Notes under the pieces: generated by a model
What the model was told of the DNA's origin: nothing
Seen by the model: only the letters and a program-made list of their open reading frames with translations
Database searches by the model: none
Part shown: positions 1-30,624 of the stretch, one piece after another
Position numbering within the stretch: position 1 is the first letter of the stretch
Layout of the letters: every line of letters begins with the position of its first letter
DNA from: a virus
Taxonomy: Duplodnaviria; Caudoviricetes
Virus record (IMG/VR): IMGVR_UViG_3300030334_000096
Span: 1-37,490 of that record
Direction: 5' to 3' (one strand)
Length of the DNA: 37,490 nucleotides
Program-made: the position numbers and the translations under genes

Positions 1-264
1 ATGACTGATCGTCAAGTCACTGCCACTGGCAAAGACACAGATGGTGATATCACTAAGCTTTGTAAGTCGGGTGAGTGGTGGTCGCCACGTAGCAAAGCAG
101 ACGCTATCAGGGATATTGAGATGGGCTTCAACACTTACTACGTGAAGGATAAAGCGGGAAACCGTGCAGACATTCACGTAGTGACCGTGGGGTCAAAAAA
201 ACACCTAAGGACCTCAGCTGACGCATCATCCGCTAATAATTTGGATAACTTGCCTGACTGCTAA
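1..264 (+). CDS. DUF3892-like small protein (accessory/moron)
   Basis: 87 aa with 'AIRDIE...YYV...IHVV...KHLRT.AD....NNLDNLPDC', the pattern I recognise as DUF3892; start may be at the window edge. Confidence 0.75.
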   Translation: MTDRQVTATGKDTDGDITKLCKSGEWWSPRSKADAIRDIEMGFNTYYVKDKAGNRADIHVVTVGSKKHLRTSADASSANNLDNLPDC

Positions 265-297
265 TAAGATTTTGTGGGCTTGGTTCAGCTACATGTC

Positions 298-326
298 TTG
301 CACAGTGTGCCTGAAATAGCTAAGCT
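298..326 (+). promoter_or_regulatory. putative sigma70 late promoter (pR'-like)
   Basis: TTGCAC (298-303), 17 bp spacer, TAAGCT (321-326); followed closely by a terminator and then the lysis genes. Confidence 0.5.
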
Positions 327-343
327 AATCCCATTATCTAATT

Positions 344-937
344 TTGCGCCTCGGCTTTGCCGGGGCGTTTTGCTATGAGGCCCTGCGAGTGCCGCCGTTG
401 CTGCCAGAGTACCTGACGGAAACTGTTCAAGTGGTCGTGCAGTCTCTTCCAACTGACTGGGAGGCTGTTCGCTTCTCCGCACTATGGAACGGCGTTGGAG
501 CAGGTGTAGGGGCAGGTGTGGGTGCGCTCATTGGTGGGGCTCTGAGCTATTTTGCTACGGTTAAGGCAAATTTTAGATTCGAGCGAAGCAAAAAAGCTGC
601 ACAGATATGTGCATTGGCCAAGCACTGTAAAGAAGAATTATATGAGTTAGATTTAAAGCGAGCCATGAATGCTGCATTAACAAGGCCTGTTTTTATAATG
701 CGAACTGAGGTGGAGGATTATAAAAAATACCTTGACCAACTTGTATTATTGATCGAGCTACATTTCCCTGATGATGAGTCATTAACTTACAATCTTTCTA
801 AAGATGCTCGTAAGCTTTTCGATGTTAGGGCCACCGAGCCTATCTCTCAGAATCCAGAAAGTGCATGTGAACGTCGGAGTGATCTGGAACGTCGTTTAGA
901 GTGTATTTCTAACCGTTTCAAAAGAGAGATTACATAA
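344..937 (+). CDS. hypothetical membrane-anchored protein (moron); true start probably downstream of 371
   Basis: Open frame with a Gly-rich hydrophobic segment (GVGAGVGAGVGALIGGALSYFA) and an AT-rich 3' half; the annotated TTG start overlaps the terminator. Confidence 0.55.
   Translation: MRLGFAGAFCYEALRVPPLLPEYLTETVQVVVQSLPTDWEAVRFSALWNGVGAGVGAGVGALIGGALSYFATVKANFRFERSKKAAQICALAKHCKEELYELDLKRAMNAALTRPVFIMRTEVEDYKKYLDQLVLLIELHFPDDESLTYNLSKDARKLFDVRATEPISQNPESACERRSDLERRLECISNRFKREIT
346..371 (+). terminator. intrinsic terminator (tR'-like)
   Basis: GCGCCTCGGC-TTT-GCCGGGGCGT followed by T residues. Confidence 0.55.
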
Positions 938-973
938 ATCTAAACTACTGTCGGGAGACAGCAGGCACCCACT

Positions 974-1600
974 ATGACTACCTCCCTCAAGCAGCGGCTG
1001 GTCGCCTCGGTCATTGACCGAGAGGGCGGCTACGTCAATCACTCGTCTGATCGTGGCGGCCCTACCAATTACGGCATTACCGTTGCTGTCGCTCGAGAAA
1101 ACGGCTACTACGGCGATATGCGAGAGCTGCCCAAGTCGCTGGCCGTGCGTATCTATGAGGCCCGCTACTGGACGAGCATTCGCCTCAACTGCATTGCACC
1201 GATCAGCGCCACACTGGCCGAATACCTTTTCGATTTTGGTGTTCACTCTGGCCCAGGTCGATCAGCCAAAGAGCTGCAGCGCACGCTTAACGTGCTGAAC
1301 AATCGCGGCCAGCTGTTTGCCGACCTCAAAGAAGACGGTGCCGTCGGCCCCGCTACGCTCAATGCGCTTGACGCTTTCCGCAAGGCCCGGGGCGGTGCTG
1401 GTCTTTATGTGCTGGCTGAGTCTATCAATGGCGTCCGCATTGCCTTCTGCCGTGGCCTCGCTGAGCGGGACGAGCGACAAGAGGACTTCGCCTACGGGTG
1501 GTTTAAGCGCGTCGTCAATTTACGCAACGAGGTAGAAAGCGACCAGGCAGACCGCTTGGTAGCGACGCTATACAGCGAGATCGCGGCGGAGGTGGCCTGA
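974..1600 (+). CDS. endolysin, glycoside hydrolase family 108 with peptidoglycan-binding domain
   Basis: 'REGGYVNHSSDRGGPTNYGIT' GH108 motif; C-terminal 'DGAVGPATL...F.YGWFKR' PG-binding region. Confidence 0.93.
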   Translation: MTTSLKQRLVASVIDREGGYVNHSSDRGGPTNYGITVAVARENGYYGDMRELPKSLAVRIYEARYWTSIRLNCIAPISATLAEYLFDFGVHSGPGRSAKELQRTLNVLNNRGQLFADLKEDGAVGPATLNALDAFRKARGGAGLYVLAESINGVRIAFCRGLAERDERQEDFAYGWFKRVVNLRNEVESDQADRLVATLYSEIAAEVA

Positions 1601-1905
1601 TGGCCCAGGAGCGCGACGTGAAACCCTCCGTATTCGAGCGGCATATGCAGACAGGAATTCAAGTGCTGCTGGTGGCACTGATTATTTGGGCCGGTACCCA
1701 GCTTGTGAAGCTCGGCCAGCAATCGGTTGTTCTCGAAGAACGACTGACTACTCAAGGTCTGATGCTTCAAGAGTTACGCCAAGAGCTCAAAAGCTGGGGT
1801 GACACTTACTACCGAGCTACCGACGCCCGCCGCGAGCTTGATCAGATTGAAACCCGCATCGACAACCTGAATAGCCGTGTATCGGCGCTGGAAGGTGGAC
1901 TGTGA
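1600..1905 (+). CDS. lysis-cassette membrane protein (single TM plus coiled coil)
   Basis: TM 'IQVLLVALIIWAG' then heptad-like coiled coil; translationally coupled between endolysin and holin. Confidence 0.65.
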   Translation: MAQERDVKPSVFERHMQTGIQVLLVALIIWAGTQLVKLGQQSVVLEERLTTQGLMLQELRQELKSWGDTYYRATDARRELDQIETRIDNLNSRVSALEGGL

Positions 1906-2345
1906 ACCTCATTACCAAAGCGCTGAGCGCCATTACCGGCCCGCTATTCAGCGTGATCGATAAAGCGGTGACAGATAAAGACGAAGCCAACCGGCTCAAA
2001 TCTGAGATTCAGTCGCAGCTCATTGAGTCGCAAGACTCGCTGCTCAAGGCTCAGATGCAGATCATCTTGGCCGAAGCGCAGGGCGAGAGCTGGTTGCAAC
2101 GCAACTGGCGGCCGCTGCTGATGATCGTGATCGTTGCTGTGATTGCGAACAACTATTTGCTGGCCCCTTACCTTGGCGCGATCTTCGGCGTGGGGCTGCA
2201 GCTAGATCTTCCAGAGCGGCTATGGGACTTGATGACTATCGGTGTCGGCGGTTACGTCACCGGTCGCACGGTGGAGAAGGGCATTAGCTCATGGCAGCAA
2301 GGCAAGGCGCAGTCAGGCCTCTACCGTGAAGCTGACACTAAGTAA
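1902..2345 (+). CDS. 3TM-type holin (GTA holin-like)
   Basis: 'ESWLQRNWRPLLM' and 'LWDLMTIGVGGYVTGRTVEK' motifs typical of this holin family; next to the endolysin. Confidence 0.85.
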   Translation: MNLITKALSAITGPLFSVIDKAVTDKDEANRLKSEIQSQLIESQDSLLKAQMQIILAEAQGESWLQRNWRPLLMIVIVAVIANNYLLAPYLGAIFGVGLQLDLPERLWDLMTIGVGGYVTGRTVEKGISSWQQGKAQSGLYREADTK

Positions 2346-2451
2346 GCGTATTGAAGCGTGGCTACGGCTGCGCTGGGTTATCGCCGTGTTTCTGCTGTCT
2401 GGGTACTGGCACTACAAGCACCGCAAACACTTCGTGAGGAAGTCGAGATGA
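2326..2451 (+). CDS. possible 41-aa membrane peptide
   Basis: GTG start, hydrophobic core (WLRLRWVIAVFLLSGYW) and basic tail; stop overlaps the next ATG (ATGA). Confidence 0.35.
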   Translation: MKLTLSKRIEAWLRLRWVIAVFLLSGYWHYKHRKHFVRKSR

Positions 2452-2987
2452 GTAAAGAAACAGGCATTAACGGGCCAACAATCACGGTTGACCATATCAA
2501 TAGCGTGATCGTAGACGAGCAGTACCACGTATTCGCAGGCACCACCCTGACCGTATGTGTCCTAACACTGCGTAATGGTTTCACGGTGACCGGGGAAAGC
2601 GCGTGTGTGGATCCTGCCAACTTCGATGCTGAGAAGGGGCGCCATTACGCTCGGGAGCAAGCGTTCGGGAAAATCTGGATGCTTGAAGGCTATCTGCTCC
2701 GAGACCAGCTTCACCAGTCCGCGGCTACTGCGCCTGTTCCCATTGAGGGCAAGCCTGGCTTCATGACATATCAAGGCAAGCCAACCACCCGGGATGCATA
2801 CTGCGTGCAGCCAGGCGATGTCATTGAGAGTGCAGGCGAGGCCACTTATCGCACCGTGATCGAAGGCAAGGCGGTGGAGTTCAAGGCTTACGAGCAGGTA
2901 AATGTGGGTGATTACATCGTCTATCTCACTGACAGCGATATCTACCATTGCCGAGCCGATGTGTTCCACGAGCGAAATATTGTTTAA
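2448..2987 (+). CDS. Phage_gp49_66 (N4 Gp49/Sf6 gp66) family protein fused to a second small domain
   Basis: 'TLTVCVLTLRNGFTVTGESACVDPANFDAEKG...IWMLEGYLL' is the Gp49 family signature; real start taken as ATG 2448; extra C-terminal domain ending 'GDYIVYL...YHCRADVFHERN'. Confidence 0.85.
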   Translation: MSKETGINGPTITVDHINSVIVDEQYHVFAGTTLTVCVLTLRNGFTVTGESACVDPANFDAEKGRHYAREQAFGKIWMLEGYLLRDQLHQSAATAPVPIEGKPGFMTYQGKPTTRDAYCVQPGDVIESAGEATYRTVIEGKAVEFKAYEQVNVGDYIVYLTDSDIYHCRADVFHERNIV

Positions 2988-2992
2988 CACTC

Positions 2993-3110
2993 TCGCTGTG
3001 AAGCGACACGCCACGCTGTGAAGCGTTGCACTGGTCGCGCTGTGAAGCGCCACCACCCGGCCATGCCGTGAGGCACCGCCAACCCCGCCGCACGTCGTGA
3101 GACGTCCGGC
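2993..3110 (+). ncRNA. putative structured ncRNA: array of five GUGA-tetraloop hairpins
   Basis: TCGCT-GTGA-AGCGA (2993-3006), ACGCT-GTGA-AGCGT (3013-3026), GCGCT-GTGA-AGCGC (3037-3050), TGCC-GTGA-GGCA (3064-3075), ACGTC-GTGA-GACGT (3092-3105); intergenic, stems covary. Confidence 0.7.
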
Positions 3111-3160
3111 ATCTTTTGATACGCTGTTCCCATAACACTAACTAGAGTGAGGGGAGCAGA

Positions 3161-3424
3161 ATGCACACCAGCAGGGTCGATCATTACCTATCCATTAGTA
3201 CCGCGAACATTCTTAGAAGTAGTGGGCTTGAGCTATCCAGGCCAACCCCAGAGCTTCAGGAGTTGGTGGATACGGATGCTTGGAAGGAGATATTTGGCCT
3301 TGGCCCTAAGAGACGTGATGAGCTAAGCCATGCACTCACCTCAGCTCGACAGCGGACTCATAAAAGCATTGAGGCCGCAATTGAGCTTCTGGAAGAGCAT
3401 GGCTATACCGTGAATCCGCCTTAA
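3161..3424 (+). CDS. hypothetical protein
   Basis: 87-aa ORF with a good SD (GAGGGGAG) before the ATG. Confidence 0.6.
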   Translation: MHTSRVDHYLSISTANILRSSGLELSRPTPELQELVDTDAWKEIFGLGPKRRDELSHALTSARQRTHKSIEAAIELLEEHGYTVNPP

Positions 3425-3456
3425 GAGTATGTCCTATATGATTGGCGAGTTGTAAT

Positions 3457-3484
3457 CACTGGAGCGTCTGGCGACGCTCCAGTG
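3457..3484. terminator. perfect 12-bp hairpin between convergent genes
   Basis: CACTGGAGCGTC-TGGC-GACGCTCCAGTG. Confidence 0.55.
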
Positions 3485-3489
3485 TTCAT

Positions 3490-4098
3490 TCATTGATGTG
3501 TGCTTTCTGTAAGATATTTAACCGCCTTTTTTACCATTATTTCCTTGTGAAAGTTTTTTAGTGATACCATAAATGGGAAAAGTATTATTGAGTAAAATAA
3601 TGTAGCTATGAAAACTTTTGTTAGATCGATGTCATTGAAGGTGTAGCTCATCATAGCAGGTGTTAAAAAGTAAAAATTCAATGCGAAAAATGAAAATGCC
3701 AGAAATAAGAATATAGCATTGATTTTAAAAGATTTTTTTTCAATAAAATTTACCGGTTCCTTTTTTTTAAATAAGCTGTTGAACCCACTTATTTCAACTT
3801 TGTGTGGTGCAATTCTATAAAATTCTAGTATTTTTGGGGAGTTGGCTTTTTTAAGTGCTAATAGCAGGCATTGTGCATTCGCTTCAAAACCGGTTAAGTC
3901 GTAAAAGTTATGCATGATTACGCCGAATTTTTTGCTTGATATATCTATGTCTTCTTCGCTTGCATATAGATCGATGATTCTGTTTTTGATTTCTTGATCT
4001 ATTTTTTTTTGATTATGCTGAAGGTTTTTATTTGCAACATAATAGGCCATTGCTACACCTAGAAGCGGTAAAATACTTTTAAGTAAATCGTTCATCAT
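3490..4098 (-). CDS. AT-rich membrane protein (moron, opposite strand)
   Basis: 202 aa with about 3 hydrophobic segments; visibly much lower GC than flanks; AAGGGA SD. Confidence 0.7.
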   Translation of the reverse strand: MMNDLLKSILPLLGVAMAYYVANKNLQHNQKKIDQEIKNRIIDLYASEEDIDISSKKFGVIMHNFYDLTGFEANAQCLLLALKKANSPKILEFYRIAPHKVEISGFNSLFKKKEPVNFIEKKSFKINAIFLFLAFSFFALNFYFLTPAMMSYTFNDIDLTKVFIATLFYSIILFPFMVSLKNFHKEIMVKKAVKYLTESTHQ

Positions 4099-4201
4099 AT
4101 CCCTTGCTAGTTGAATAAGTTAGATGTGGCCTCTATTAGGCATCCGAATTATACATTTTTTTTGATCATGGAGGCGCTGCCAGCAATGGCGGCGTTTTTT
4201 T

Positions 4202-4804
4202 ATGGCGAAAAGACACGATTGGGAGCTGATCGAGCGGGAATATCGCACTGGTCGTTTTTCGCTGGCCCAGCTAGAGGCACGGCACAACGTGAACCGCTCG
4301 AATATCAGCCGCCGTGCCAAGAAGTACGGCTGGAAGAAGGATCTCAGCGGGCGCGTGCGTGAGCGCACCCAGGAGAAAATAGCCCGCGTATCGCTGCCGC
4401 CAGAAGCCCAAGAGGCGCTGGACGAGCAAGACGACGCCATCATCGAGTTTGCGGCGAATGAGAACGCCGCCGTAGTGAAAGGGCACCGCAGCACACTAGA
4501 GCGCTGGCGAGGCATTACAAACCGCTACGCCGAGATCCTGGAAGAGCAGGTTGAGAAAGGCACCATCGTTGTAGATGTGCCCACTGGCGGTACCGTTGAA
4601 GTAGATGTGCCGCTGGATTATGTCGGCAAGTGTCTAGGCTTCGGCACCCAAGCGCTTGAGCGCGTGGTCAAGTTGGAGCGCCAAAATTACGGCCTCGACT
4701 TGAAAGAGAGCGACGACGACAAGGCACCAGAAGCTGAGCTCACCGACGATGAGCTAGAGGCGCGCATCGCCAAACTTCAGCAGCAGGTGGGCGGTGAGCA
4801 ATGA
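4202..4804 (+). CDS. terS: terminase small subunit
   Basis: N-terminal HTH 'DWELIEREYRTG..SLAQL...HNV...NISRRAKKYGW'; directly upstream of the terminase ATPase. Confidence 0.8.
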   Translation: MAKRHDWELIEREYRTGRFSLAQLEARHNVNRSNISRRAKKYGWKKDLSGRVRERTQEKIARVSLPPEAQEALDEQDDAIIEFAANENAAVVKGHRSTLERWRGITNRYAEILEEQVEKGTIVVDVPTGGTVEVDVPLDYVGKCLGFGTQALERVVKLERQNYGLDLKESDDDKAPEAELTDDELEARIAKLQQQVGGEQ

Positions 4805-5510
4805 TAACCGCGCTGCCCGCTTGGCGCTGCTGGCGGCGCTGGAAGAAAAGGCGAGGCGCAAACGCTACAACCTGATACGCGAGCTATTCCCCGATGAAGG
4901 CCCGTATCAGCGTGAGCTGTACGGCAAGCACTTAGAGTTTTTCCGGGCAGGCAAGTATCACAAAGAGCGCCTGTTCATGGCCGGTAACCGCGTAGGCAAG
5001 ACGATTGCCGGTGGTGGCGAGATGACCTACCACCTCACTGGCGAGTACCCGCACTGGTGGGAGGGACGCACGTTCGATAAGCCAATCACTGCACTGGCTG
5101 CAGGCGATACCAGCCAAACCACCCGCGACATTATCCAGAGCAAGCTACTCGGCGGCCTTTGGAATACCGACGAGTTCGGCAGCGGCCTGATACCACGCGA
5201 CAAGCTAGGCAAGCCGACGCCTGCCCGGGGCGTTGCCAACCTATACGAAGAGATCAATGTCAGCCACGCCAGCGGCGGTACCAGCCGATTGATGCTCCGC
5301 AGCTATGACCAGGGCCGACGAATATTCCAGGGCACCGAGCAGGACGTGGTCTGGCTCGATGAGGAAGTACCCAAGGACGTATACGACGAGGCGCTGATCC
5401 GCACGATGACCACACGCGGCATTGTGATGATGACCTTTACGCCCCTGTCTGGCCTCACGGAGCTGGTGGTGTCGTTTCTCGAATCCAAACACGAGCAGGA
5501 GCCGGTATGA
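4794..5510 (+). CDS. terL: terminase large subunit, N-terminal ATPase half (P22 gp2-like)
   Basis: Walker A 'AGNRVGKT', Walker B 'VVWLDEE', coupling motif 'TFTP'; ends at TGA 5510. Confidence 0.9.
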   Translation: MSNDNRAARLALLAALEEKARRKRYNLIRELFPDEGPYQRELYGKHLEFFRAGKYHKERLFMAGNRVGKTIAGGGEMTYHLTGEYPHWWEGRTFDKPITALAAGDTSQTTRDIIQSKLLGGLWNTDEFGSGLIPRDKLGKPTPARGVANLYEEINVSHASGGTSRLMLRSYDQGRRIFQGTEQDVVWLDEEVPKDVYDEALIRTMTTRGIVMMTFTPLSGLTELVVSFLESKHEQEPV

Positions 5511-5728
5511 CCGACCCCATCCAATGCGAATATCTCGCCGCGAGCGTCAGCACCAAGTACCAGGAGCGCACCACGGCTGCAGCCAAGCGCATTGCCGACC
5601 TAGTGAAAGAGCGCGGCATTGAAGGCGGCATGCTGTCAATAAAAGTGGCGCGCATGGTAGACCCGCACGCTAGCACTGGCGATGTGCTGACCATTGCAGG
5701 CGCACAGTTCATGGTAGGTCTGCGTTGA
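5507..5728 (+). CDS. 73-aa hypothetical protein inserted between the two terminase halves
   Basis: AGGAG SD; ATGA overlap with the upstream stop and TTGA overlap with the downstream start. Confidence 0.65.
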   Translation: MTDPIQCEYLAASVSTKYQERTTAAAKRIADLVKERGIEGGMLSIKVARMVDPHASTGDVLTIAGAQFMVGLR

Positions 5729-6441
5729 GCCGCTATGTCGTACAAGCGGGCTGGAAAGATGCTCCGCACCTCAAGCAAGAGGATATCGACGATATGGCCA
5801 AGGGCATTAGCCCTCACCAGCTCGAAGCGCGCATGAACGGTATTCCGACCCTAGGAAGTGGCGCCATATTCCCGGTACCAGAAGAAGACATTATCTGTGA
5901 TCCATTCCAAATCCCCGGCTGGTGGGCGCGTGCTTATGGCCTCGACGTTGGCTGGAAAAAGACCGCTGCCGTGTGGGGCGCGCTCGACCGAGATACCGAC
6001 ATTCTCTACCTGACCAGCGAGCATTACCGGGGGCAGGCCGAGCCGACCGTTCACGCGAAAGCCATCAAAATGCGCGGCAGCTGGATGCCGGGAATCATCG
6101 ACTACGCAGGCACGAACCAGAGCGACGGCAAGCGCGTGATGACGCTGTACGAAAACGAAGGCCTGAACCTTATCCGTGCTGACAAGAGCGTGGAGGCTGG
6201 GCTGCTGGAAGTGCTGGACCGGTTAAGCACTGGACGCCTGAAAGTGTTCAGCACGCTGCAGCACTGGCTAGGCGAGTACCGGCTGTACCGCCGCGATGAG
6301 AAAGGCCGCGTGGTGAAACAGAACGACCACCTCATGGACGCCACCCGCTACCTAGTGATGAAGCTCCACCACGCCACCACGCGCCCCGTTCAAAATATCG
6401 GCGCAGGCAGCGCCCCCGGCGACTACACGACAGGGTACTAG
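5725..6441 (+). CDS. terL: terminase large subunit, C-terminal lid plus RNase H-like nuclease half
   Basis: 'RYVVQAGWKDAPHL...ARMNG' lid region; 'GLDVGW' and 'DHLMDATRY' nuclease acidic motifs; TTG start after AGGT. Confidence 0.88.
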   Translation: MSRYVVQAGWKDAPHLKQEDIDDMAKGISPHQLEARMNGIPTLGSGAIFPVPEEDIICDPFQIPGWWARAYGLDVGWKKTAAVWGALDRDTDILYLTSEHYRGQAEPTVHAKAIKMRGSWMPGIIDYAGTNQSDGKRVMTLYENEGLNLIRADKSVEAGLLEVLDRLSTGRLKVFSTLQHWLGEYRLYRRDEKGRVVKQNDHLMDATRYLVMKLHHATTRPVQNIGAGSAPGDYTTGY

Positions 6442-6442
6442 C

Positions 6443-8701
6443 ATGCGAAACCCCGCGACTGCCGAGATGGCAGACGAGCAAGACACAGCGCCCGTTGAGC
6501 TAGACGCCGACGAGCGCGAGGCATTACGCCAGCAGCAGGAAGAAGAACTGAACATGCTGGGCACCAAGCTTCACCGCTTGGCCCATGAGCAGGTGGCCGC
6601 TAAAGAGCAGATCGAAACCCGCTGGCTGGAAGATTTGCGCCAGTACAACGGCAAGTACACCGAAGATCAGCTTGCCAGGATGCGCCAGAAGGGCGGCAGC
6701 CAGGTGTTCGTCAATATCACGCGCAACAAGACGCGGGCGGCGATTGCGCGGCTCAGCGATATGTTGCTGCCCAACGACGACACCAATTTCGGCATTAAGC
6801 CCACGCCCGTACCGGCGATGAGCAAGCAGCAGGGCGTGATGCAGGCCGATATTCAGCAGCCGGGGATGATGCCGCAAGGCATGCCGCCAGAGATGAAAGG
6901 CCAGCCCGGCATGATGTCAGAGCAGGGCATGCAGCCAGAGCAGCCCGACCCGCAGGCGATTGCCGACGAAGCGGCACGGCAAATGCAGCAGCAGATCGAG
7001 GACGACTTCGCGGAGAGCCGCTACAACGCCCATACCCGCGACGTGATCGAGGACGCCTGCATCCTGGGCACTGGCATTCTGAAAGGCCCGGCTATCGTGA
7101 ACCGCACTCGCCGCGCTTGGACGACCGACCCGGCCACTGGCCAGAGCGTGATGGAGATTCAAGAGGAGTTCCGGCCAGCGGTCGAGCGTGTAGACCCCTG
7201 GGACTTCTTCCCCGATATGTCAGCGGCCAAGATGAGCGAGGCCGAGTTCGTGTTTGAGCGCAAGCTGCTCAACCGCAAGCAGCTGCGCGACCTAGCCGAC
7301 CTGCCTGGCGTAATGCTGCCCCAGCTGCGCCGAGCGCTGGAAGATAAAGACGGCCACCATATTTCCCACGACCGCCGCGACGAGATGCGCGCCATTACCG
7401 GCGTGGATACCGTGGTGAGCGATGCCCGCTACGAGCTATGGGAGTATTGGGGGCCGCTGGATAAGGAAGAATTAGAAGCGTGTGGTTGCGACGTAGACGA
7501 TGACCCGTTAGTGGAATACACCGGCTGCGTGCTGATGGTGGGCAACCACGTTATCAAAGCCGCTCTGAACCCGCTGGAAACCGACGACCTGCCTTATTCG
7601 GTATTCAACTGGGAGGAGGATAGCTCCACCATTTTTGGCTTTGGTGTGCCGTACCTGATGCGACAGCCGCAAAAGGTCGTCAACGCCGCGTGGCGCATGA
7701 TGATGGACAACGCCGGGCTGTCCGCAGGCCCGCAGATCGTAGTCAATAAGCGGGCCGTCACGCCCAAGGATGGCGATTGGACGATTCGCAGTAACAAGGT
7801 GTGGGAATACACCGGCGATGCGCCCATCGATCAAGCGTTCCTGTCAGTGCAAATCCAGAACAACCAGGCCGATATGGCAGCCATCTTCAACATGGCGCAA
7901 GAGCTGGCCGACACCGAAACCAACTTGCCGGTGTTGCTGCAGGGCGAGGGCATGAGCGGCGGCCCCGGTGCCAGAACGGCGACCGGCATGCAGATGCTGA
8001 TGAACAACTCCAACATCGTGCTGCGCAGCGCCGTGAAGAACTTCGATGACGGTATCAGCGTGCCGACCGTTCGCCGCTTCTACGACTACCACATGATGTA
8101 CACCGACCGCGCCGAGATAAAAGGCGACTTCGATGTGGTGGCGAAGGGTACGTCTGTACTGATTGCCCGCGAGGAGCAGCAAGAGAAGTTGATGATGCTC
8201 AGCCAAGTAGCGGCCAATAACCCCATCTTTGCTGAGCTGACCAACTGGCAGGGGCTCTACAAAGAGATCCTGCGCACGCTGCAGGTGCCGGTGGATACCG
8301 TAACCTACACCGACGAGGAAGTGGAGCAGCGGCAGCAGAACCAGGGGCAGGAAGGCCCGCCGCCCGAGCTGCAGATCAAGATGCAGGAGCTACAGCTTAA
8401 ACAGCAGGAAATACAGTTAAAGTCCCAGCAACAGCAGTTTGATCAGCAGTACAAGGCTGCGCAGCTTCAAAGCGACCAAGAGATTGCCCGCCAAGAGATG
8501 GCCATTAAGTACAACATGACTATGGCGCAGCTGGAGGCCAAGTTAGGCCTAGACAGCCAGAGGCTTGAGATGGAAATGCAGAAAACGGCTGCGCAACTAC
8601 AGAACCAGCGTGACGTGAAAGCCGCCGAGCTTACCGAGCGGCAGAACGACCGCATGGCGCGCCGTGACAACATGGCTCAAGGGTACGATTCCTATGGATA
8701 A
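6443..8701 (+). CDS. portal protein
   Basis: 752 aa directly after terL; 'VNITRNK', 'GTGILKGP', 'VDPWDFFPD', 'GFGVPYLMR' podoviral portal motifs; long C-terminal coiled coil (barrel). Confidence 0.88.
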   Translation: MRNPATAEMADEQDTAPVELDADEREALRQQQEEELNMLGTKLHRLAHEQVAAKEQIETRWLEDLRQYNGKYTEDQLARMRQKGGSQVFVNITRNKTRAAIARLSDMLLPNDDTNFGIKPTPVPAMSKQQGVMQADIQQPGMMPQGMPPEMKGQPGMMSEQGMQPEQPDPQAIADEAARQMQQQIEDDFAESRYNAHTRDVIEDACILGTGILKGPAIVNRTRRAWTTDPATGQSVMEIQEEFRPAVERVDPWDFFPDMSAAKMSEAEFVFERKLLNRKQLRDLADLPGVMLPQLRRALEDKDGHHISHDRRDEMRAITGVDTVVSDARYELWEYWGPLDKEELEACGCDVDDDPLVEYTGCVLMVGNHVIKAALNPLETDDLPYSVFNWEEDSSTIFGFGVPYLMRQPQKVVNAAWRMMMDNAGLSAGPQIVVNKRAVTPKDGDWTIRSNKVWEYTGDAPIDQAFLSVQIQNNQADMAAIFNMAQELADTETNLPVLLQGEGMSGGPGARTATGMQMLMNNSNIVLRSAVKNFDDGISVPTVRRFYDYHMMYTDRAEIKGDFDVVAKGTSVLIAREEQQEKLMMLSQVAANNPIFAELTNWQGLYKEILRTLQVPVDTVTYTDEEVEQRQQNQGQEGPPPELQIKMQELQLKQQEIQLKSQQQQFDQQYKAAQLQSDQEIARQEMAIKYNMTMAQLEAKLGLDSQRLEMEMQKTAAQLQNQRDVKAAELTERQNDRMARRDNMAQGYDSYG

Positions 8702-8897
8702 CCTCGACCGCCACTCAGGCACTTGGCAATCCGTGACTAAGTGGCTGCAGGATCGCCGCCAGCAGTGCGTTGAGTCGCTGATTAACGGCAGCCCCAACGA
8801 CGACAAGCTGCGCGGGGAGATTCGCGTCATTGATGACCTGATCGCTAACGCGGACGACACGCCCGCGCGAGAGCCGCTACCAGATACCGATTACTAA
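8694..8897 (+). CDS. small conserved head-module protein
   Basis: 'TWQSV..WL......L.......KLRGEIR....L' pattern commonly found between portal and scaffold; ATG 8694 overlaps the portal end. Confidence 0.6.
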   Translation: MDNLDRHSGTWQSVTKWLQDRRQQCVESLINGSPNDDKLRGEIRVIDDLIANADDTPAREPLPDTDY

Positions 8898-8919
8898 CCT
8901 GCCGCTGCGCGGGTTTTTT
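8897..8919 (+). terminator. intrinsic terminator
   Basis: ACCTGC-CGCTGC-GCGGGT followed by a T tract. Confidence 0.5.
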
Positions 8920-8980
8920 ATTGCCTGCACGCAGGCCAACCGCGTCGTGAGACGCCACAGCCGTTCGGGAGAACCGCTAC

Positions 8981-9874
8981 ATGAGCACCGAGAACCAGCC
9001 GCTTGATAAGCCGCAGGATACTCAAGACGACTTCGACAGCGCGTTTGACGAGTATGCCGGAAAGACCACGGCACCCGATGAGCGCGACGAGTACCACCGC
9101 GACCAGGAGCCAGAGCAAGAGCCGGACCCAGAGGGCGAGGAAGAAGAAGCCGCCCAGCCTGAGCCGGACATTAACGAACGCCTAAGCGCGCTCGAGCAGG
9201 AAAACCAGAAGCTCAAGCACTCTGAGGCCAGTCAGCGCGGCCGCCTGGGCGCGTACCAACGACAGATCAACGAGCTGCAGCAGCAACTACAGCAACGCCA
9301 GCAGCACACCCAGCACGCCGATGGCCGGGAGAAGTCCGACGACGAGCGCCGCGACGAAGCTGCCCAAGAGATGGGCAGCGACGATTGGGACGCTTTTAAG
9401 GAGGACTTTCCCGACATGGCCCGCGCCTTCGAAGCTCGTCTGAAAGCAGACCAGCAGCGGCAGGCGCAGTTAGAACAGCAGCTCCAGCAGCTGCAATCCG
9501 CAGTGCAGCCCATCCAGCAACAGGCGCATGAACAGCAGCTTCAATCGGAATACGCCCGCCTCGAAAGCCGGCACAGCGATTGGCGTGACGTGGTCAATGC
9601 CCCTGAGTTTCAGTCATGGCTGCAAAACCAGAACCCGGCTATCCAGCAGCTTGCGGGAAGCGAAAGCGCCGATGACGCATCCGCGCTCCTCGATTTCTAC
9701 AAGGGCAACATGCCGGGCGATAACAGCCGTGCCACTCAGCACGACAAACGGCAGAGCCGACTAGCGAACGCCCAGACCGTGAGCCGCCGAGGGGCCGCTC
9801 AACAACGGGGCACGCCAGACGACTTCGATGCCGCCTTTGAACACTACGCCGCCAAAAAAGCGCGGCAACGCTAA
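8981..9874 (+). CDS. capsid scaffolding protein
   Basis: Acidic, Gln-rich coiled-coil protein immediately upstream of the major capsid gene; 'H.DW..VV....FQ.WL' motif. Confidence 0.75.
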   Translation: MSTENQPLDKPQDTQDDFDSAFDEYAGKTTAPDERDEYHRDQEPEQEPDPEGEEEEAAQPEPDINERLSALEQENQKLKHSEASQRGRLGAYQRQINELQQQLQQRQQHTQHADGREKSDDERRDEAAQEMGSDDWDAFKEDFPDMARAFEARLKADQQRQAQLEQQLQQLQSAVQPIQQQAHEQQLQSEYARLESRHSDWRDVVNAPEFQSWLQNQNPAIQQLAGSESADDASALLDFYKGNMPGDNSRATQHDKRQSRLANAQTVSRRGAAQQRGTPDDFDAAFEHYAAKKARQR

Positions 9875-9900
9875 TCCTTCTTACCGTGAGGTAACACGCA

Positions 9901-10893
9901 ATGGCTACTACTACCTATGGCTCTATCTCGCAGCGTACCGCTGCCTGGGCTGCCGCTGAAATGCTGGCTCACGCCGAGCCTATCTTGGTGCTGTCCAAAT
10001 TCGGCCAGTCCAAGCCGATGCCCAAGAACAAAGCCGATACGGTGAAGTTCCGCCGCCCGGTGCCGTTCAACATCCCTAATACCCCGCTGGCCGAAGGCGT
10101 CACCCCGACTGCGCAACAAATGCAGTACGAGGACGTGGAAGTACAGCTCAAGCAGTGGGGCGCTTGGGTTGAAATCACCGATGTGGTCAACGACTTGGCC
10201 GAAGACCCGGTGCTGTCTGACGCTTCCATGCTGTGCGGCGAACAAGCAGCGGAAACCGTCGAGGTGCAGACCTGGGGCGCCATTCGCGCAGGCACCAACG
10301 TGTTCTATGCCAACGGCGCAGCCCGCTCAGCGGTGAACACCAAGATTAGCCTGGCTAAGCAGCGCGCTATCACTCGCGCACTGAAAGCCCAGCGCGCCAA
10401 GAAAGTCACCAGCATGGTGGGCAGCTCTCCCAACTACTCCACCGAGCCGGTTGATGCCGCGTTTGTCGCGTTCGCACATACCGACCTCGAAGCGGATATT
10501 CGAGACATGGTCGGCTTCGTGCCCACTGAGAAATACGGCAGTATGAAGGCGCTACCGTATGAGATCGGCAAGGTGGAGGATGTGCGCTACGTACTTTCCC
10601 CGGTGCTGGACAAGTTCGCCGACGCGGGCGGCACTGCAGGCAGCATGGTGTCTACCACTGGCACCAACGCAGACGTATACCCCGTAGTGTACATCGCCAA
10701 GGAGTCCTACGGACTGGTGCCGCTGAAAGGCAAGAACGCGGTCACGCCGAAGGTGCTGAACCCAGATACCCCGCGTGGCGGCGACCCGCTTGGCCAGCGC
10801 GGCTCCGTAGGCTGGAAAACCTACTTTGTGGCCAAAGTGCTTAACGAAGCATGGCTTGCCCGCCTGGAGGTCGCTGCTTCCGAGCTGGCGTAA
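9901..10893 (+). CDS. major capsid protein, N4-gp56 family
   Basis: 'LVLSKFGQSKPMPKNK.DTVKFRR', 'LAEGVTP', 'EIGKVEDVR', 'DPLGQRGSVGWK' motifs. Confidence 0.93.
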   Translation: MATTTYGSISQRTAAWAAAEMLAHAEPILVLSKFGQSKPMPKNKADTVKFRRPVPFNIPNTPLAEGVTPTAQQMQYEDVEVQLKQWGAWVEITDVVNDLAEDPVLSDASMLCGEQAAETVEVQTWGAIRAGTNVFYANGAARSAVNTKISLAKQRAITRALKAQRAKKVTSMVGSSPNYSTEPVDAAFVAFAHTDLEADIRDMVGFVPTEKYGSMKALPYEIGKVEDVRYVLSPVLDKFADAGGTAGSMVSTTGTNADVYPVVYIAKESYGLVPLKGKNAVTPKVLNPDTPRGGDPLGQRGSVGWKTYFVAKVLNEAWLARLEVAASELA

Positions 10894-10909
10894 CCCCTAA
10901 CCACCCCTC

Positions 10910-10936
10910 AAGCCCCGGCATCCGCTGGGGCTTTTT
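10910..10936 (+). terminator. intrinsic terminator after the capsid gene
   Basis: AAGCCCCGGC-ATCC-GCTGGGGCTT followed by TTT. Confidence 0.75.
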
Positions 10937-10963
10937 ATTTCTGCTTACCGTGAGGTAACCGCA

Positions 10964-11374
10964 ATGTCAGAAGTCAACGTCAACACCATGGACCGCGCCA
11001 CGCTGGAGCAAACCGCTAACGACCTGGGCGTTAAGTTTGCACACAACGCCAGCGACGACACGCTGCGTAACAAGCTGCGTGAAGCACTAGGCGAGCCGCC
11101 AGCGCCAGAGCTGAATACGGCGCCAAGCACCGCTGAAAGCACCAAAGAAAAGCGCTTTGAGATCATCATTCAAACCGATGGCAAGGATAAGCAGCCGGTG
11201 CCCGTGGGTGTGAACGGCAAGATGTGGGCCATTCAGCGCGGCAAAAACGTCATCGTGCCTGAATCCGTGGTCGAGGTGCTGAAAAACGCCAACCGCTACG
11301 AGTACGACCCCAAGGATATGAGCCGCACCGAAGTCTTGGCCTACCCCTTCCAGATCGTGCGCGAAGTGGAGTAA
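10964..11374 (+). CDS. conserved virion-module protein with an N-terminal small helical (HeH/Rho-N-like) domain
   Basis: 'LEQTANDLGVKFAHNASDDTLRNKL' N-terminus and 'VPVGVNG....IQRG..V.VPE.VVEVL.NA' C-terminus. Confidence 0.65.
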   Translation: MSEVNVNTMDRATLEQTANDLGVKFAHNASDDTLRNKLREALGEPPAPELNTAPSTAESTKEKRFEIIIQTDGKDKQPVPVGVNGKMWAIQRGKNVIVPESVVEVLKNANRYEYDPKDMSRTEVLAYPFQIVREVE

Positions 11375-11377
11375 GCC

Positions 11378-11992
11378 ATGACGTTCCTGGAATTGTGCCA
11401 ACGGCTACGCCAAGAAGTTGGCGCAGCCGGGAATGGCCCTGCGAACGTGGCCGGTCAGTCTGGGGAATACGCACGCCTGATCGGCTGGGTGAAAACCGCT
11501 TGGCGGGAAATCCAGTTAGAACGCCGCTGGCGGTTTGATTGGTCGCTCGGCCAAGTGGAGCTGACCACCGAGGATATCCAATACCCACTACCAGATGATT
11601 TTGACGCCTGGGTAGTGGATACCCTGCGTTTCGGCAGCCAAGTGATTCGCGTATTGCCGTGGGAAGAACTGCGCTATGCCGCTAACGACCACCTCACATG
11701 CGCGGCGATTGCGCCGGACGGCGTGCTTCACCTTAACGCCGCGCCTACCAACTCAGGTACGCTGCTGTTTGAATACTGGCGCACCCCGCAGGAATTGGAG
11801 AACAACAACGATGTGCCGCGTATGCCGTCACGCTATCACATGGCGATTGTTTACCGCGCGATGCTGCAATACGGGCTTTATGAGAATGCCCCCGAAGTCG
11901 TGCAGCAGGCGGGCAACAACTATCGGGAGGTGATGATGCGCGCAGCTGCCACCGAACTACCCCCAATTAGCACAGGGGAGGCGCTAGCATGA
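11378..11992 (+). CDS. head-tail adaptor protein
   Basis: 'MTFLELCQRLRQEVG...WV..AW.EIQ...P.MP.RYHMAIVYRAM' adaptor pattern and position. Confidence 0.75.
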   Translation: MTFLELCQRLRQEVGAAGNGPANVAGQSGEYARLIGWVKTAWREIQLERRWRFDWSLGQVELTTEDIQYPLPDDFDAWVVDTLRFGSQVIRVLPWEELRYAANDHLTCAAIAPDGVLHLNAAPTNSGTLLFEYWRTPQELENNNDVPRMPSRYHMAIVYRAMLQYGLYENAPEVVQQAGNNYREVMMRAAATELPPISTGEALA

Positions 11993-13812
11993 GTAGCAGC
12001 GCTTACACCCCTTTGGGCGGCGGCATTGACCTTGTTACACCGCCCGCACAGCTCGCCCCCGGCGCCTGCTTATCCGCCGTCAACTACGACTGCCCAGTAA
12101 CAGGCGGCTATCGTCGCATTGAGGGCTATACGCAGATTGGCCCGGAAGTGCCGGGCACTGGCCCGATGCTGGGTGTGGTGTCGTTTGGCAGCTACGAGCT
12201 AGCGGTGCGGCAGCAGGTGGATATTCCCGCCGAGGAGGAAGGCGGCGACCCTGCCGAATGGGCAGCGCTGTTCGTGCGTGAAGGCGAAGACGCAAGCGAA
12301 ACCTGGCGCTTTGTGTCAGAGGCCAATCTGGGTCGCCACGAATGGACGGAAGGCAACGTATTAGGCACCGAAGGCGGGCGGCGCTTATATGGCGTGGGTG
12401 GCGGCAAGCCGTTCACGTTGGCCCTGCCTGCTGCCGAGGCTGCAGATTACGCCTCTATCACGGCGCTGGTCACTGCGATGGAAAGCCACTTTGCCGATGG
12501 CGTGACCTTTACCAACGCTACGGACGTGCTCACCCTCAAAGATCCGAAAGGGCGCGACATCACCGGCGCTACGGTGCTAGGCCGTGACGGCACGGCTTTG
12601 CTATCGCCTGCTGACGTCACAGGGGATGGCACCACCACTACGGAAATGGCAATCGATCTAGCGAGCATCGAACCCAACGACATTGAGCGTGTGACGTTCA
12701 GCGTAGGCAGTCTCCCGCAGATGAGTATGATTGTCCCGGACAAGACGCTGATCCATACCGAGCTGACCGATGCCCCAAATGGCGCGGTGTTCATCAAGCT
12801 ATTCAAGAACCACCTGTTTTTAGGTTTCACCGAGGGCAGCATTCAACATTCCGAGCTGGGCAAGCCTGCCGAGTGGGATGCCTCTACCGGCGGCGCGGGC
12901 GAAATAGCAGTGGGCCAAACGCTCACCGGCCTAGTGCTGGGCCGTGGTGGCGTATTGCATGTGCTTTGCCGCGACACCATTCAAACCCTGTATGGCTCAA
13001 GCTCGGCCGATTGGCGCCTAGAGGTCACTGTTCCCAATAGTGGCGCACGCCCTTACAGCGGGCAAAGCCTAATGCAGCCTTACTTTATCGCCGAGCGCGG
13101 CATCGGCAGTTTGGAGGCAACCAACGCTTATGGTGACTTCCGGCCCATGCAGCCAGGTTATCAGGTCGAACCCATCTTTTTGCAGGAGCGACTGTTCACC
13201 CGCGTCAAAGCCTCGGCGATCAGCAAACAGCGGGCACAGTATCGAGTGTGGTTCGATAACGGCACCGGCGTGTATATGAGCCCGACCGGCATTACGACCG
13301 TGCGTTTTCCCGCGCAGGTCGAAGTGACGCACAGCGGTGAGCGTGACACCGGTGCCGAGGTGCTGCTATTCGGGGATGACAAAGGTAACGTCTACCGCCT
13401 GGATAACAACGCCACCAGCTTTAATGGCGCGCCCATCGAAGCCTTCCTAACGCTGGCCTATAACACGCTCAAAAGCCCATCGGTACGGAAGCGATTCCGC
13501 CGCGTGTTTTGGGACGTGCGCTCCGGCTCTAACGCCAATATTTCTATCCTCACCGACTTCGACTACGGCCGTGTTGAAACCGCAACACCGCGCAGAGAGT
13601 TCATTCAGTTCCTGCTCGGTGGCGGGTTGTGGGATGTCGCCAACTGGAACCAGTTTAGCTGGTCGTCACCCTCACTAGGCCAAGAGCCGATGAACGTCAG
13701 CGGCACTGGCACCGCCATCAACTTCGCCATCTACTCCAACTCTGACAGTGAGCCCCACGAAATCTTGGGCTACGACATTCACTTTGAACAGCGGAGGCGC
13801 CGCCGTGGCTGA
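11989..13812 (+). CDS. tail nozzle / tail tubular protein B-like (beta-propeller)
   Basis: 607 aa beta-rich protein after the adaptor; 'GGIDLVTP', 'GGYRRIEGY', 'RKRFRR', 'W.QFSW' motifs. Confidence 0.7.
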   Translation: MSSSAYTPLGGGIDLVTPPAQLAPGACLSAVNYDCPVTGGYRRIEGYTQIGPEVPGTGPMLGVVSFGSYELAVRQQVDIPAEEEGGDPAEWAALFVREGEDASETWRFVSEANLGRHEWTEGNVLGTEGGRRLYGVGGGKPFTLALPAAEAADYASITALVTAMESHFADGVTFTNATDVLTLKDPKGRDITGATVLGRDGTALLSPADVTGDGTTTTEMAIDLASIEPNDIERVTFSVGSLPQMSMIVPDKTLIHTELTDAPNGAVFIKLFKNHLFLGFTEGSIQHSELGKPAEWDASTGGAGEIAVGQTLTGLVLGRGGVLHVLCRDTIQTLYGSSSADWRLEVTVPNSGARPYSGQSLMQPYFIAERGIGSLEATNAYGDFRPMQPGYQVEPIFLQERLFTRVKASAISKQRAQYRVWFDNGTGVYMSPTGITTVRFPAQVEVTHSGERDTGAEVLLFGDDKGNVYRLDNNATSFNGAPIEAFLTLAYNTLKSPSVRKRFRRVFWDVRSGSNANISILTDFDYGRVETATPRREFIQFLLGGGLWDVANWNQFSWSSPSLGQEPMNVSGTGTAINFAIYSNSDSEPHEILGYDIHFEQRRRRRG

Positions 13813-14920
13813 TGACCGTTATTACTCTAACACCGACGAGGCTCAACGCTTTCAGCCAGGCACCACAGCGGAAGCGGGGCAGGTTGATCAGAAGTTTGAT
13901 GAAGTGACGGCAGGCTTTCAGGAAGTCGCGCAGGACACCGACCGAAGCCTGAAGCTGCCCGCCGTCACCGGCACAAGCCAGGAGCTTAACGCCACACCAC
14001 TGCAGCGCCGCCGAATGGTTGTTGGCTTTGATGCGGACGGCAACTTAACGCTACTGCAAGGCTTTGGCTGGCGGGGTGATTGGGCGACGGCGACTGAATA
14101 TTTCGTCAACGATGTATTCCGCGACCCGGTTACCAAAAACCTTTACGTCACCGTTACCCGCCATACCAGCGCCGCCGCACTAAGCACCGACATTACCGCA
14201 GAGCGTGTTGAGCTAGCGATTAGCGTAGAGGAGATCGAGGCCGCCAAGACAGCCGCACAAACGGCAGCCTCTACCGCCACCGCCAAGGCAGGAGAGGCGG
14301 CAAGCTCTGCATCTACAGCTGCTGCCAAGGCAAGCGAAGCAAGTGCGTCGGCAGGCACTGCCACCACCAAAGCAGGCGAGGCCAGCAGTTCCGCAGCCGC
14401 CGCAGCCGAGATTTACGACAATTTTGATGACCGCTACCTGGGCGCTAAAACCTCAGACCCCGACACTGATAACGATGGTGATCCACTCTTAGTCGGCGCG
14501 CTTTATTTCAACTCTACTAGCAGCTCTATGCGCCAGTGGAGCGGCAGCGCCTGGGGTGATAGCTATGCCACGGTGGACCTTGAGGGCGATGCTAGCGGCG
14601 CGATTAACATGGCGGGCAACGCCCTGAATATCCGATGGAGCACAAAAACTGCTGCTTATGCGGCGATCAAAGGTGACCGACTGTTGGCGAATACGAGCGC
14701 AGGGGCCTTTACGATAACGCTACCTTCCACTCCCTCGTCCGGCGACGAAGTGTGGTTTGCCGACCCTGGCGCTAACTGGGCGACGAACAACCTAACAGTG
14801 GATGGAAATGGCAATAACATCGACGGCGCAGCGACTTTTTCCGCTGATCTAAATGAAGGTTATTTCGCGGCGATTTATAACGGCGCGGCATGGGTGATTA
14901 AATTTGCAGGGGGTGTGTAA
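13805..14920 (+). CDS. tail fibre protein
   Basis: GTG 13805 with GGAGG SD; 'WRGDWATATEY.VND' module, Ala/Ser/Thr-rich repeats, 'FDDRYLGAK..DP..DNDG..L..GALYFN' segment and a C-terminal 'ANTSAGAFTITLP' beta module. Confidence 0.8.
   Translation: MADDRYYSNTDEAQRFQPGTTAEAGQVDQKFDEVTAGFQEVAQDTDRSLKLPAVTGTSQELNATPLQRRRMVVGFDADGNLTLLQGFGWRGDWATATEYFVNDVFRDPVTKNLYVTVTRHTSAAALSTDITAERVELAISVEEIEAAKTAAQTAASTATAKAGEAASSASTAAAKASEASASAGTATTKAGEASSSAAAAAEIYDNFDDRYLGAKTSDPDTDNDGDPLLVGALYFNSTSSSMRQWSGSAWGDSYATVDLEGDASGAINMAGNALNIRWSTKTAAYAAIKGDRLLANTSAGAFTITLPSTPSSGDEVWFADPGANWATNNLTVDGNGNNIDGAATFSADLNEGYFAAIYNGAAWVIKFAGGV
14272..14400 (+). repeat. three 14-aa (42-bp) tandem repeats in the tail fibre
   Basis: TATAKAGEAASSAS / TAAAKASEASASAG / TATTKAGEASSSAA. 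Confidence 0.7.
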
Positions 14921-15414
14921 TGGGCGCATTAAGTGATTTTGTTCGTAATCCTGCCTTCGAGTCTGCACTGCTTTATGCTGTTGATGAAAAGCCGGATGGA
15001 TCTAGTGGCGGCGCATCTAATAACGACTCTTACCGCACCAGGGATTTAAATACCATACTGGTAAACGATATAGAAGGCGCGTCTCTTGCCTCCAATCGGG
15101 TATTGCTACCTCCTGGTAGCTACTATATTGAAGCGTCGGCTCCTGCCTCATATTCAGATAGTCACCATTTGGCGTTATTTAACTATACAGGCTCTACCTA
15201 TGAGTGTTTTGGCACATCTGAATATACAGATAGCGGAGCCGGGCTCGACCAGACGAGATCCTTCTTATTTTGCAAGGTTACAATTCAAGCGGCTACTGAA
15301 TTTGAGTTTCGCCATTACACTCAGAGTTCACGAACATTAACTGGGTTAGGCGTTGGGAGAACGCAAGGCAGCCCCGAAATATATCTGCAAGCAAAAATCT
15401 GGAAGGTGGCATAA
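14920..15414 (+). CDS. tail-fibre-associated (receptor-binding tip-like) protein
   Basis: Beta-rich 164 aa, lower GC than flanks, coupled to the fibre gene (TAATG). Confidence 0.6.
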   Translation: MGALSDFVRNPAFESALLYAVDEKPDGSSGGASNNDSYRTRDLNTILVNDIEGASLASNRVLLPPGSYYIEASAPASYSDSHHLALFNYTGSTYECFGTSEYTDSGAGLDQTRSFLFCKVTIQAATEFEFRHYTQSSRTLTGLGVGRTQGSPEIYLQAKIWKVA

Positions 15415-15905
15415 TGACTTATGTGCTTATAGAAGGCGGTGTCGTAAGGCAGAAGCAGCCATACCCGCAAGATGGCTTCATCAAAGCGCCCGATCATATC
15501 GTGTGCGGCATGTTTTACGATCACAAGACAGGCGGATTCACCACCCCGCCCAAGTACACCACGCTTGAAGAAGCCAGAGCCGACAAACAGCGCGAGATCA
15601 ACGCCGCTTATTCCTCCGAACTTGATGCCATCCTTTCCGACTACCCGGAAGCTGAGACCAAGACATGGGACAAGCAAGAGAGTGAGGCGCGGGCGTATCA
15701 AGACGATAGCACCGCCTCGACCCCGCTGATTGATGCTATCGCCACCGCCCGCAGCATGGATAAGGCCGAGCTAGTGCAGCGGGTGATTGCTAAAGCGGAT
15801 GCCTGGATTGCGTTAAGTGGGGCAGCGACGGGTAAGCGGCAGGCGTTGGAAGATGCGATTGCTAGCACTGAAAGCTTGGAGGCGCTCGACGCTATTAGCT
15901 GGTAA
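15414..15905 (+). CDS. tail fibre assembly chaperone-like protein
   Basis: 'YP..E..TW.KQE.EARAY...TPLID.IA.AR...GKRQALED.I...LDAISW' pattern. Confidence 0.75.
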   Translation: MTYVLIEGGVVRQKQPYPQDGFIKAPDHIVCGMFYDHKTGGFTTPPKYTTLEEARADKQREINAAYSSELDAILSDYPEAETKTWDKQESEARAYQDDSTASTPLIDAIATARSMDKAELVQRVIAKADAWIALSGAATGKRQALEDAIASTESLEALDAISW

Positions 15906-15926
15906 CGCTAACACTCTGCACCACAC

Positions 15927-15946: not shown

Positions 15947-16007
15947 ATGCCCGCACAAAACACCTATACTATGACAGAGCACTATCCAGCAAGCCGGGAG
16001 GCTTCCT

Positions 16008-20224: not shown

Positions 20225-20299
20225 CCCGTAGCCCATTGCTGGCTGTACCACGCCAGCGATGACGTTACGCCTACCAGCCTTGTCGGGAGACAACGCCTC

Positions 20300-30622: not shown

Positions 30623-30624
30623 CT

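Follow-up and report, generated by a model that had tools for sequence, protein, structure and literature searches.

The window analysed here, a 37,490-nt stretch of viral DNA, carries an array of five tandem GUGA-loop hairpins (2993..3110) upstream of the terminase genes, and sequence comparison supports its conservation as RNA structure in related Halomonadaceae phages. The same hairpin element occurs singly at the start codons of late genes, and it is a real, conserved and apparently undescribed RNA element. Our tentative reading is that one translational regulator of lytic genes binds at several sites on the array (an operator plus an array), with a probability of about 0.42.

The window is the late region of a temperate podophage of the Halomonas prophage type. 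Its late gene content comprises endolysin, holin, a PF13876 gene, the terminase small subunit gene (terS), a split large subunit gene (terL), portal, scaffold-like, major capsid and tail genes, and a gene for a 2730-aa protein. The nearest relatives by capsid protein (79-98%) are prophages of Vreelandella, Halomonas, Litchfieldella, and Chromohalobacter. The record lacks the early region, thus statements on that region rest on relatives. The array and its neighbours are arranged as follows:

2448..2987, + strand: Gp49/Sf6 gp66 (PF13876) gene, Acb4 anti-CBASS sponge family, with an extra C-terminal domain; a variable neighbour of the array, not a partner
2993..3006, + strand: array hairpin 1; 5-bp stem, GUGA loop, closing C·C mismatch (2992/3007)
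3010..3029, + strand: array hairpin 2; 2-bp outer stem, C·U mismatch, 5-bp stem, GUGA loop
3032..3055, + strand: array hairpin 3; 4-bp outer stem, C·C mismatch, 5-bp stem, GUGA loop; missing in four-copy relatives (28-nt gap at 3031)
3059..3080, + strand: array hairpin 4; 3-bp outer stem, CA/CC internal loop, 4-bp stem, GUGA loop; compensatory changes in two pairs
3087..3110, + strand: array hairpin 5; 4-bp outer stem, C·C mismatch, 5-bp stem, GUGA loop; compensatory changes in two pairs
3111..4167, no strand: AT-rich insert (GC 0.38) that parts the array from terS and carries orf3161-3424 (+) and orf3490-4098 (-); one relative has 9 nt instead
4156..4211, + strand: terS initiation region; terminator-like hairpin that buries GGAGG and AUG (-26.7 kcal/mol); other relatives have a GUGA-type hairpin here
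4202..4804, + strand: terminase small subunit gene (terS), the gene after the array in relatives

The PF13876 gene product matches 9e4w (E 0.003), and it is fused to a second domain of ~75 aa (phrog_36318), possibly a second anti-defence module. Within the insert, orf3161-3424 encodes a small moron protein with a weak alpha-CTD/HhH-like structural lead that stays under the naming threshold; a homologue lies after the array in L136. The hairpin at 4156-4211, with the Shine-Dalgarno sequence (SD) and AUG buried and a U run directly before the AUG, has a folding z-score of -5.5 and is common to a subgroup of relatives. The large terminase subunit (4794-6441) consists of two ORFs with a 73-aa ORF between them, a layout found again in several relatives and therefore no assembly error. 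Behind the gene for the 2730-aa protein (the giant gene), an Arc-like repressor and Ant antirepressor cassette (30018-31371) resembles the P22 immI region.

The preliminary description of this stretch had reported five tandem GUGA-loop hairpins directly after the Gp49 gene, had quoted three of them, and had stated that none precedes a start codon. All of this holds. The GTGA loops lie at 2998, 3018, 3042, 3068, and 3097, the three quoted sequences are exact to the letter, the first stem begins 5 nt past the Gp49 stop (2987), and no start codon follows within 45 nt, the start of orf3161 being 64 nt past the last loop. The stems have five perfect pairs in four hairpins and four pairs in hairpin 4, and all five are formed as separate stems in the predicted MFE and centroid folds, with folding z-scores of -4.26 for 2960-3160 and -2.76 for 2986-3125. 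Such a cluster is far from chance: the window contains eight GTGA hairpins of at least 5 bp where 0.15 are expected, and the 118 nt of the array hold five GNGA hairpins vs. at most two in 20,000 dinucleotide shuffles. The array folds as DNA also. The ATCTTTT at its end, suggested earlier as a weak terminator, was not called as a terminator, and a simple consensus scan found no promoter-like site upstream.

The proposal that the array is made of the element found on late-gene ribosome-binding sites (RBSs) is borne out by further copies in the window and by leader counts in relatives. Seven more copies, at endolysin, scaffold, capsid, orf10964, and injection genes among others, are found at start codons (953, 8947, 8967, 9886, 10950, 15996, and 20285, four of them with a GGGA loop); they are listed here with the scaffold-like gene:

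948..961, + strand: endolysin copy; single, GGGA loop, upstream of the SD; GUGA in relatives
8942..8955, + strand: scaffold-leader copy 1; GUGA loop, C·C mismatch
8960..8977, + strand: scaffold-leader copy 2; GC-C, stem, GGGA loop, stem, C-GC; overlaps the SD; most conserved site
8981..9874, + strand: scaffold-like gene, named from its position before the major capsid gene and a helical coiled-coil model; putative binder
9881..9894, + strand: major capsid copy, over the SD; GUGA loop, C·C mismatch
10945..10958, + strand: orf10964 copy, over the SD and just past a terminator; GUGA loop, C·C mismatch
15991..16004, + strand: orf16008 copy, over the SD; GGGA loop, C·C mismatch
20277..20296, + strand: copy at the 2730-aa gene, over the SD; GGGA loop, C·C mismatch, outer stem

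The unit thus consists of an outer stem, a C·C or C·U/A·C mismatch, a stem of 4-5 bp, and a GNGA loop. Among 311 distinct intergenic GNGA contexts the loop is GTGA in 197, GGGA in 47, GCGA in 45, and GAGA in 22. The first mismatch is C·C in 131/311 GNGA contexts vs. 13/97 GNAA contexts, and beyond it pairing returns in the GNGA contexts (0.61 at position 7), while the GNAA controls have no outer stem. The unit lies on the sense strand of rightward lytic transcripts. The distance from loop to ATG has two peaks: at 11-15 nt the hairpin contains the SD, and at 19-23 nt the SD follows the hairpin or, at terS, precedes it. This gives three geometries: SD inside the hairpin, SD after the hairpin, and hairpin between SD and AUG. 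Since all of them overlap or abut the ribosome footprint, a repressor would fit better than a position-specific activator. Taken singly, the RBS hairpins do not exceed shuffled sequences in stability (z -0.8 to +0.5).

When leaders were anchored on gene starts and not on pairing, a GNGA hairpin within 50 nt was found for endolysin (9/12), terS (14/30), scaffold (18/30), orf10964 (14/52), orf16008 (2/4), orf18610 (7/13), and the giant gene (7/8); the capsid gene is mostly without one (6/74). The same count gave 0/155 for holin (8), gp49 (14), portal (25), adaptor (54), nozzle (35), orf17108 (7), orf17507 (1), and orf19226 (11), although direct reading revealed portal-leader copies in L005 and L007 that the anchored count had missed. 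The marked genes are those that follow an intergenic gap. A single copy also lies between the cro-like and cII-like genes, so named by position, in 6/12 related genomes scanned (L146:3637(-) and five others), with a compensatory change in L149.

The scaffold leader was also examined with a test that ignores the loop and asks for a GC-C...C-GC type hairpin with a C·C mismatch. This hairpin is present in 35/39 scaffold leaders at a capsid identity of at least 64%, in 3/14 below that, and in 3/89 control leaders. The loops vary (GGGA, GUGA, GAAA, UUCG, or larger) and the inner stems covary, while the C·C mismatch and its flanking pairs stay. The test was positive for 28/56 orf10964, 12/15 terS, 5/53 capsid, and 0/4 endolysin leaders, and it matched in the cultured phage vB_Pun_Y3. 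The exact flanks of the scaffold site, GC-C/C(U)-GC, recur in only 2/5 units of the array. These counts suggest that conservation is strongest at the start of the scaffold gene itself, and that the GUGA cap and the array arose as lineage elaborations. Two phenomena may overlap here: a GUGA-before-SD module of wide occurrence, and a C·C operator.

Relatives hold 2-5 hairpin copies just upstream of terS, behind differing upstream genes. The array occurs without the Gp49/Acb4 gene in L003, L004, L032, and L042. Clusters of at least two hairpins were found in 38/50 distinct terS leaders, 19-1105 nt from terS, and in 17/28 when capsid protein alone was used to retrieve the loci. The array serves two TerS families. 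In most relatives the array is part of the terS leader on the late mRNA and no free-standing gene, and copy number is graded from one to five in ordinary leaders. One relative, found twice among the runs of a single study, has 9 nt where our window has the stretch from 3110 to 4168, which identifies that stretch as an insert of ~1 kb. Arrays parted from terS by 150-1105 nt (~1.1 kb in this window) are still intact, which is what a sink would allow. Among 25 aligned arrays, hairpins 4 and 5 are paired in 92% of the cells vs. 25-48% in slid controls, an alignment that leans towards structure because its rows were picked by loop-and-stem pattern. In these two hairpins four pairs are changed on both sides (U-A/C-G exchanges), a covariation count that is inflated by kinship among the 25 arrays. 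The covarying arms, the G·U pairs, and the restriction of GNRA loops to the sense strand argue for an RNA and not a DNA site. One relative, L007, lacks an array at terS and carries about six single sites.

A viral-wide scan for a fixed stem with GTGA loop and GGAG gave 12 matches, ten of which have an ATG 4-9 nt further on, mostly at genes for capsid, tail, ejection, and lysis functions. With a GNAA loop the stem matched eight times, never with an ATG at that distance and once with a GTG. Hairpin pairs across viruses (17 vs. 6) likewise tie the GUGA loop to the RBSs of structural genes. Unrelated phages (G021, G026, and the P2-like G033) lack this scaffold family and carry GUGA hairpins where capsid, tail, and portal genes begin, and arrays of 2-3 copies precede capsid, scaffold, or major tail genes in some phages. 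In an RNA-phage contig (L144:1100-1220) four GUGA hairpins lie just behind the replicase stop codon. Host chromosomes show no enrichment (7/301 genomes vs. 4 control matches, a tally that includes genome G979, on which no claim rests). Searches for hairpin pairs gave 8/401 genomes vs. 14 control genomes phylum-wide, and family-wide 24/301 genomes, with about 13 true arrays by eye, vs. 8 control genomes. A metagenome pattern scan returned mostly tandem repeats, with 93/337 units self-complementary, and a few true arrays were kept (L271, L277, and L292). Blastn of the array against GenBank phages gave short weak matches only, and the named phages with related capsid, tail, or terminase proteins have no GUGA hairpin at a late start. 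The Halomonas phages phiHAP-1 and QHHSV-1, which have no annotated scaffold, are without the hairpin system, except that in phiHAP-1 a single GTGA hairpin lies about 70 nt upstream of terS.

How might such an arrangement work as an operator with a multivalent array? A protein bound at a start-codon hairpin would block initiation, and to control a gene cluster a single site at its head would suffice. The array, lying on the late mRNA ahead of the head genes, would bind several regulator molecules at once. In the ancestral layout it would act in cis on terS; by soaking up the regulator it would also allow repression only above a threshold. In this window the array is 1.1 kb from terS yet intact, which leaves either a buffer role or a recent insertion, and only the sink role could remain for it here. 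The least certain part is the nature of the regulator, which by analogy with P22 could be the unassembled scaffold protein. Extended to an assembly checkpoint, the reading becomes unlikely: unassembled scaffold would repress its own gene and those for terminase, endolysin, and injection proteins, late in infection it would act on the cII-like gene, and the five-site sponge in every late transcript would set the threshold. If this were true, a phage-made, Csr-like circuit with a structural protein as regulator would couple lysis and packaging to how far capsid assembly has advanced. How temperate phages obtain protein ratios and timing from one long late mRNA is poorly understood, and to our knowledge the RNA target of P22-type scaffold autoregulation is not well defined. 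The C·C mismatch hairpin offers a sharply defined operator candidate with a gene-by-gene distribution and a natural multi-copy version.

The scaffold protein is a doubtful candidate for the binder, proposed from the placement of the sites and the P22 analogy. Its family is common to the hairpin-carrying Halomonas podo- and siphoviruses (weak links, 2e-5), and 933W has a distant homologue and no such hairpin. The predicted structure is a low-confidence coiled coil (pTM 0.34) with no recognisable RNA-binding fold, and a profile search against the PDB gave weak unrelated matches only, neither a relative nor homology to P22 gp8. Neither blastp nor phmmer found a protein common to all hairpin-carrying phages.

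Three other proteins were considered and rejected as binder or partner. CsrA is encoded in 1/36 phage records and inside a prophage in 1/5 host genomes, and the array has no GGA; host genome G005 has 14 CsrA-family matches, one of them inside a prophage early region. The protein at the Q position of relatives is present in the P. aeruginosa phage AUS531phi, which has no hairpins, and some hairpin-positive phages have an unrelated protein at that position. For Gp49/Acb4, the array exists without it and its own leader is without a hairpin (0/14).

The operator reading must be weighed against several others. It is rather unlikely, though conceivable, that no protein is involved and that the hairpins act in cis by insulating the SD, by guarding processed late mRNA ends from nucleases, or by docking the GNGA loop on the ribosome, as GNGA loops dock on CU:AG helices. 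The array would then be a stronger version at the head of the packaging/head cluster, or a 3' shield for the lysis mRNA. The proximity of the GTGA + GGAG matches to an ATG (10/12 vs. 0/8, with one GTG, for GNAA), the presence of the element in unrelated phage types, the 2-3 copy arrays before genes that must be expressed strongly (capsid, scaffold, or major tail), and the four hairpins behind the replicase in L144 all agree with this. It leaves the conserved C·C mismatch and the SD-occluding copies unexplained, however; host chromosomes do not use the element, and a 5' stabiliser would hardly help here, with terS 1.1 kb away beyond an AT-rich insert. A protein-free enhancer would provide a phage-specific RBS module useful for expression in Halomonas. 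A discrete decoy RNA of ~120 nt, cut from the late transcript or made separately and titrating a binder in trans like CsrB, seems to us a good deal less probable. The array is a multi-copy version of the target element and is intact whatever its neighbours on either side, and in the subgroup without the insert a terminator-like hairpin lies about 10 nt past it. In this window, by contrast, no promoter-like site lies upstream and no terminator right behind, arrays of several relatives start within about 30 nt of different upstream stop codons, and the graded copy number in ordinary leaders and the lack of GGA speak against such a molecule.

An antitermination signal of the put or nut type, modifying RNA polymerase or blocking Rho, had been named as an alternative and has lost ground; we now consider it improbable. 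The copy between the cro-like and cII-like genes occupies the nutR/putR position, and such a signal would tolerate distance and have terminators to act on downstream of the array. But the relatives encode an AlpA/Q-like protein at the Q position, which makes a put/nut role unnecessary (Atlas TM 0.68 to PF06323; Foldseek top matches AlpA and Q-lambda, E 0.04 and 0.7), the leftward early operon has no copy in nine loci, no boxA was seen in six cro-cII gaps, many copies overlap SD sequences, and the P2-like G033 has the hairpin too. Even less probable is mimicry of 23S rRNA stem-loop 2590-2604 as a decoy for a host factor or defence effector. Hairpin 5 equals this stem-loop minus a bulged A, six host copies lie in 23S rRNA, and the gene upstream of the array belongs to an anti-defence sponge family. 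The stems differ in other units, however, the loops of the scaffold site vary freely in distant relatives, the array is independent of Acb4, and we know of no defence system that targets this 23S rRNA helix. RluB and RluF bind the stem-loop via an S4 domain (PMC3919597), and by our own count the RluF target falls at the position of the phage mismatch. A DNA site for terminase (pac/cos-like repeats upstream of terS), also raised in the preliminary description, deserves the least credence of all. It adjoins terS in most relatives and folds as DNA too, but the arms covary as pairs and not as sequence, with G·U pairs, GNRA loops appear on the sense strand only, the unit lies at many start codons, and the array is common to two TerS families.

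Among known systems, the closest working parallel would be the scaffold autoregulation of P22, broadened to a whole regulon and laid out in Csr-like fashion; by the features compared here, the element is a member of none of them. CsrA binds GGA motifs and is titrated by CsrB. The likeness to CsrB/RsmZ lies in one hairpin element on many RBSs plus a multi-copy array. In contrast to CsrB/RsmZ, with multiple GGA motifs mostly in loops, the phage array (2993-3110) has none, and it is embedded in the late mRNA without its own promoter or terminator in a simple scan. The earlier idea of a CsrB-like RNA is therefore not supported, the more so as only 1/36 phage records has CsrA, while the shared element and its conservation as RNA stand. 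The Rfam CsrB/Rsm models had no match in the window (positions 1-17000 at E<=5 gave two unrelated weak Rfam matches only) and none in seven related loci, and no Rfam family describes the element.

Gene 8 of P22, which encodes the scaffolding protein, is translationally autoregulated. Our system resembles it in a conserved RNA structure at the start of the scaffold gene (35/39 leaders vs. 3/89 controls). It differs in that autoregulation is known there for one gene and here seven single sites and a five-copy array are involved, the phage scaffold has no gp8 homology, and binding is putative. As in P22 (10.1101/2022.12.13.520362), free scaffold is a plausible repressor. The Start-Associated Sequences (SAS/ESAS) of Cluster K mycobacteriophages, a 13-nt GGGATAGGAGCCC-type repeat at the starts of non-structural genes (PMC3203893), are likewise phage-specific, in one orientation, and near-absent from the host, whereas the element described here forms tandem arrays and is a hairpin, with covarying arms, that marks structural and lytic genes. 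With the nut boxB of lambda/P22 and the put sites of HK022 the element shares a GNRA-type hairpin and a copy between cro-like and cII-like genes, but it has no paired leftward site, no boxA, and no recognised N-like gene, a Q-like protein is present, and copies overlap SDs. In nut sites, boxA stands next to the hairpin. Rac, the CRISPR repeat mimic of type I-F, has a fixed repeat stem, a pentaloop, and repeat flanks, whereas the phage hairpins have tetraloops, freely covarying stems, and no match to a CRISPR repeat family. We found no description of the motif or of close ideas in the literature, with subscription papers and supplementary motif catalogues mostly beyond reach; the sources drawn on include the accessible part of 10.1101/2024.12.30.630793. 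The phage, GNRA, and tandem motifs in the accessible part of PMC2864571 do not match, and its additional files could hold motifs that are absent from Rfam.

Further observations come from the relatives. The protein at the Q position is L001:905-1519 in one of them (phrog_3373, annotated as unknown), with an AlpA/Q-like predicted fold. From the RNA runs there were only contigs; in two of four these reach 15-16 kb and may be DNA. A sequence that complements the 3' end of 16S rRNA almost perfectly, and that has neither an AUG after it nor an Rfam match, is inserted in or after the array at L001:4144, L036:4032, L042:966, L124:1396(-), L123:1550(-), and L271:269(-), and the short frame that follows shows synonymous-looking changes in L123 and L145.
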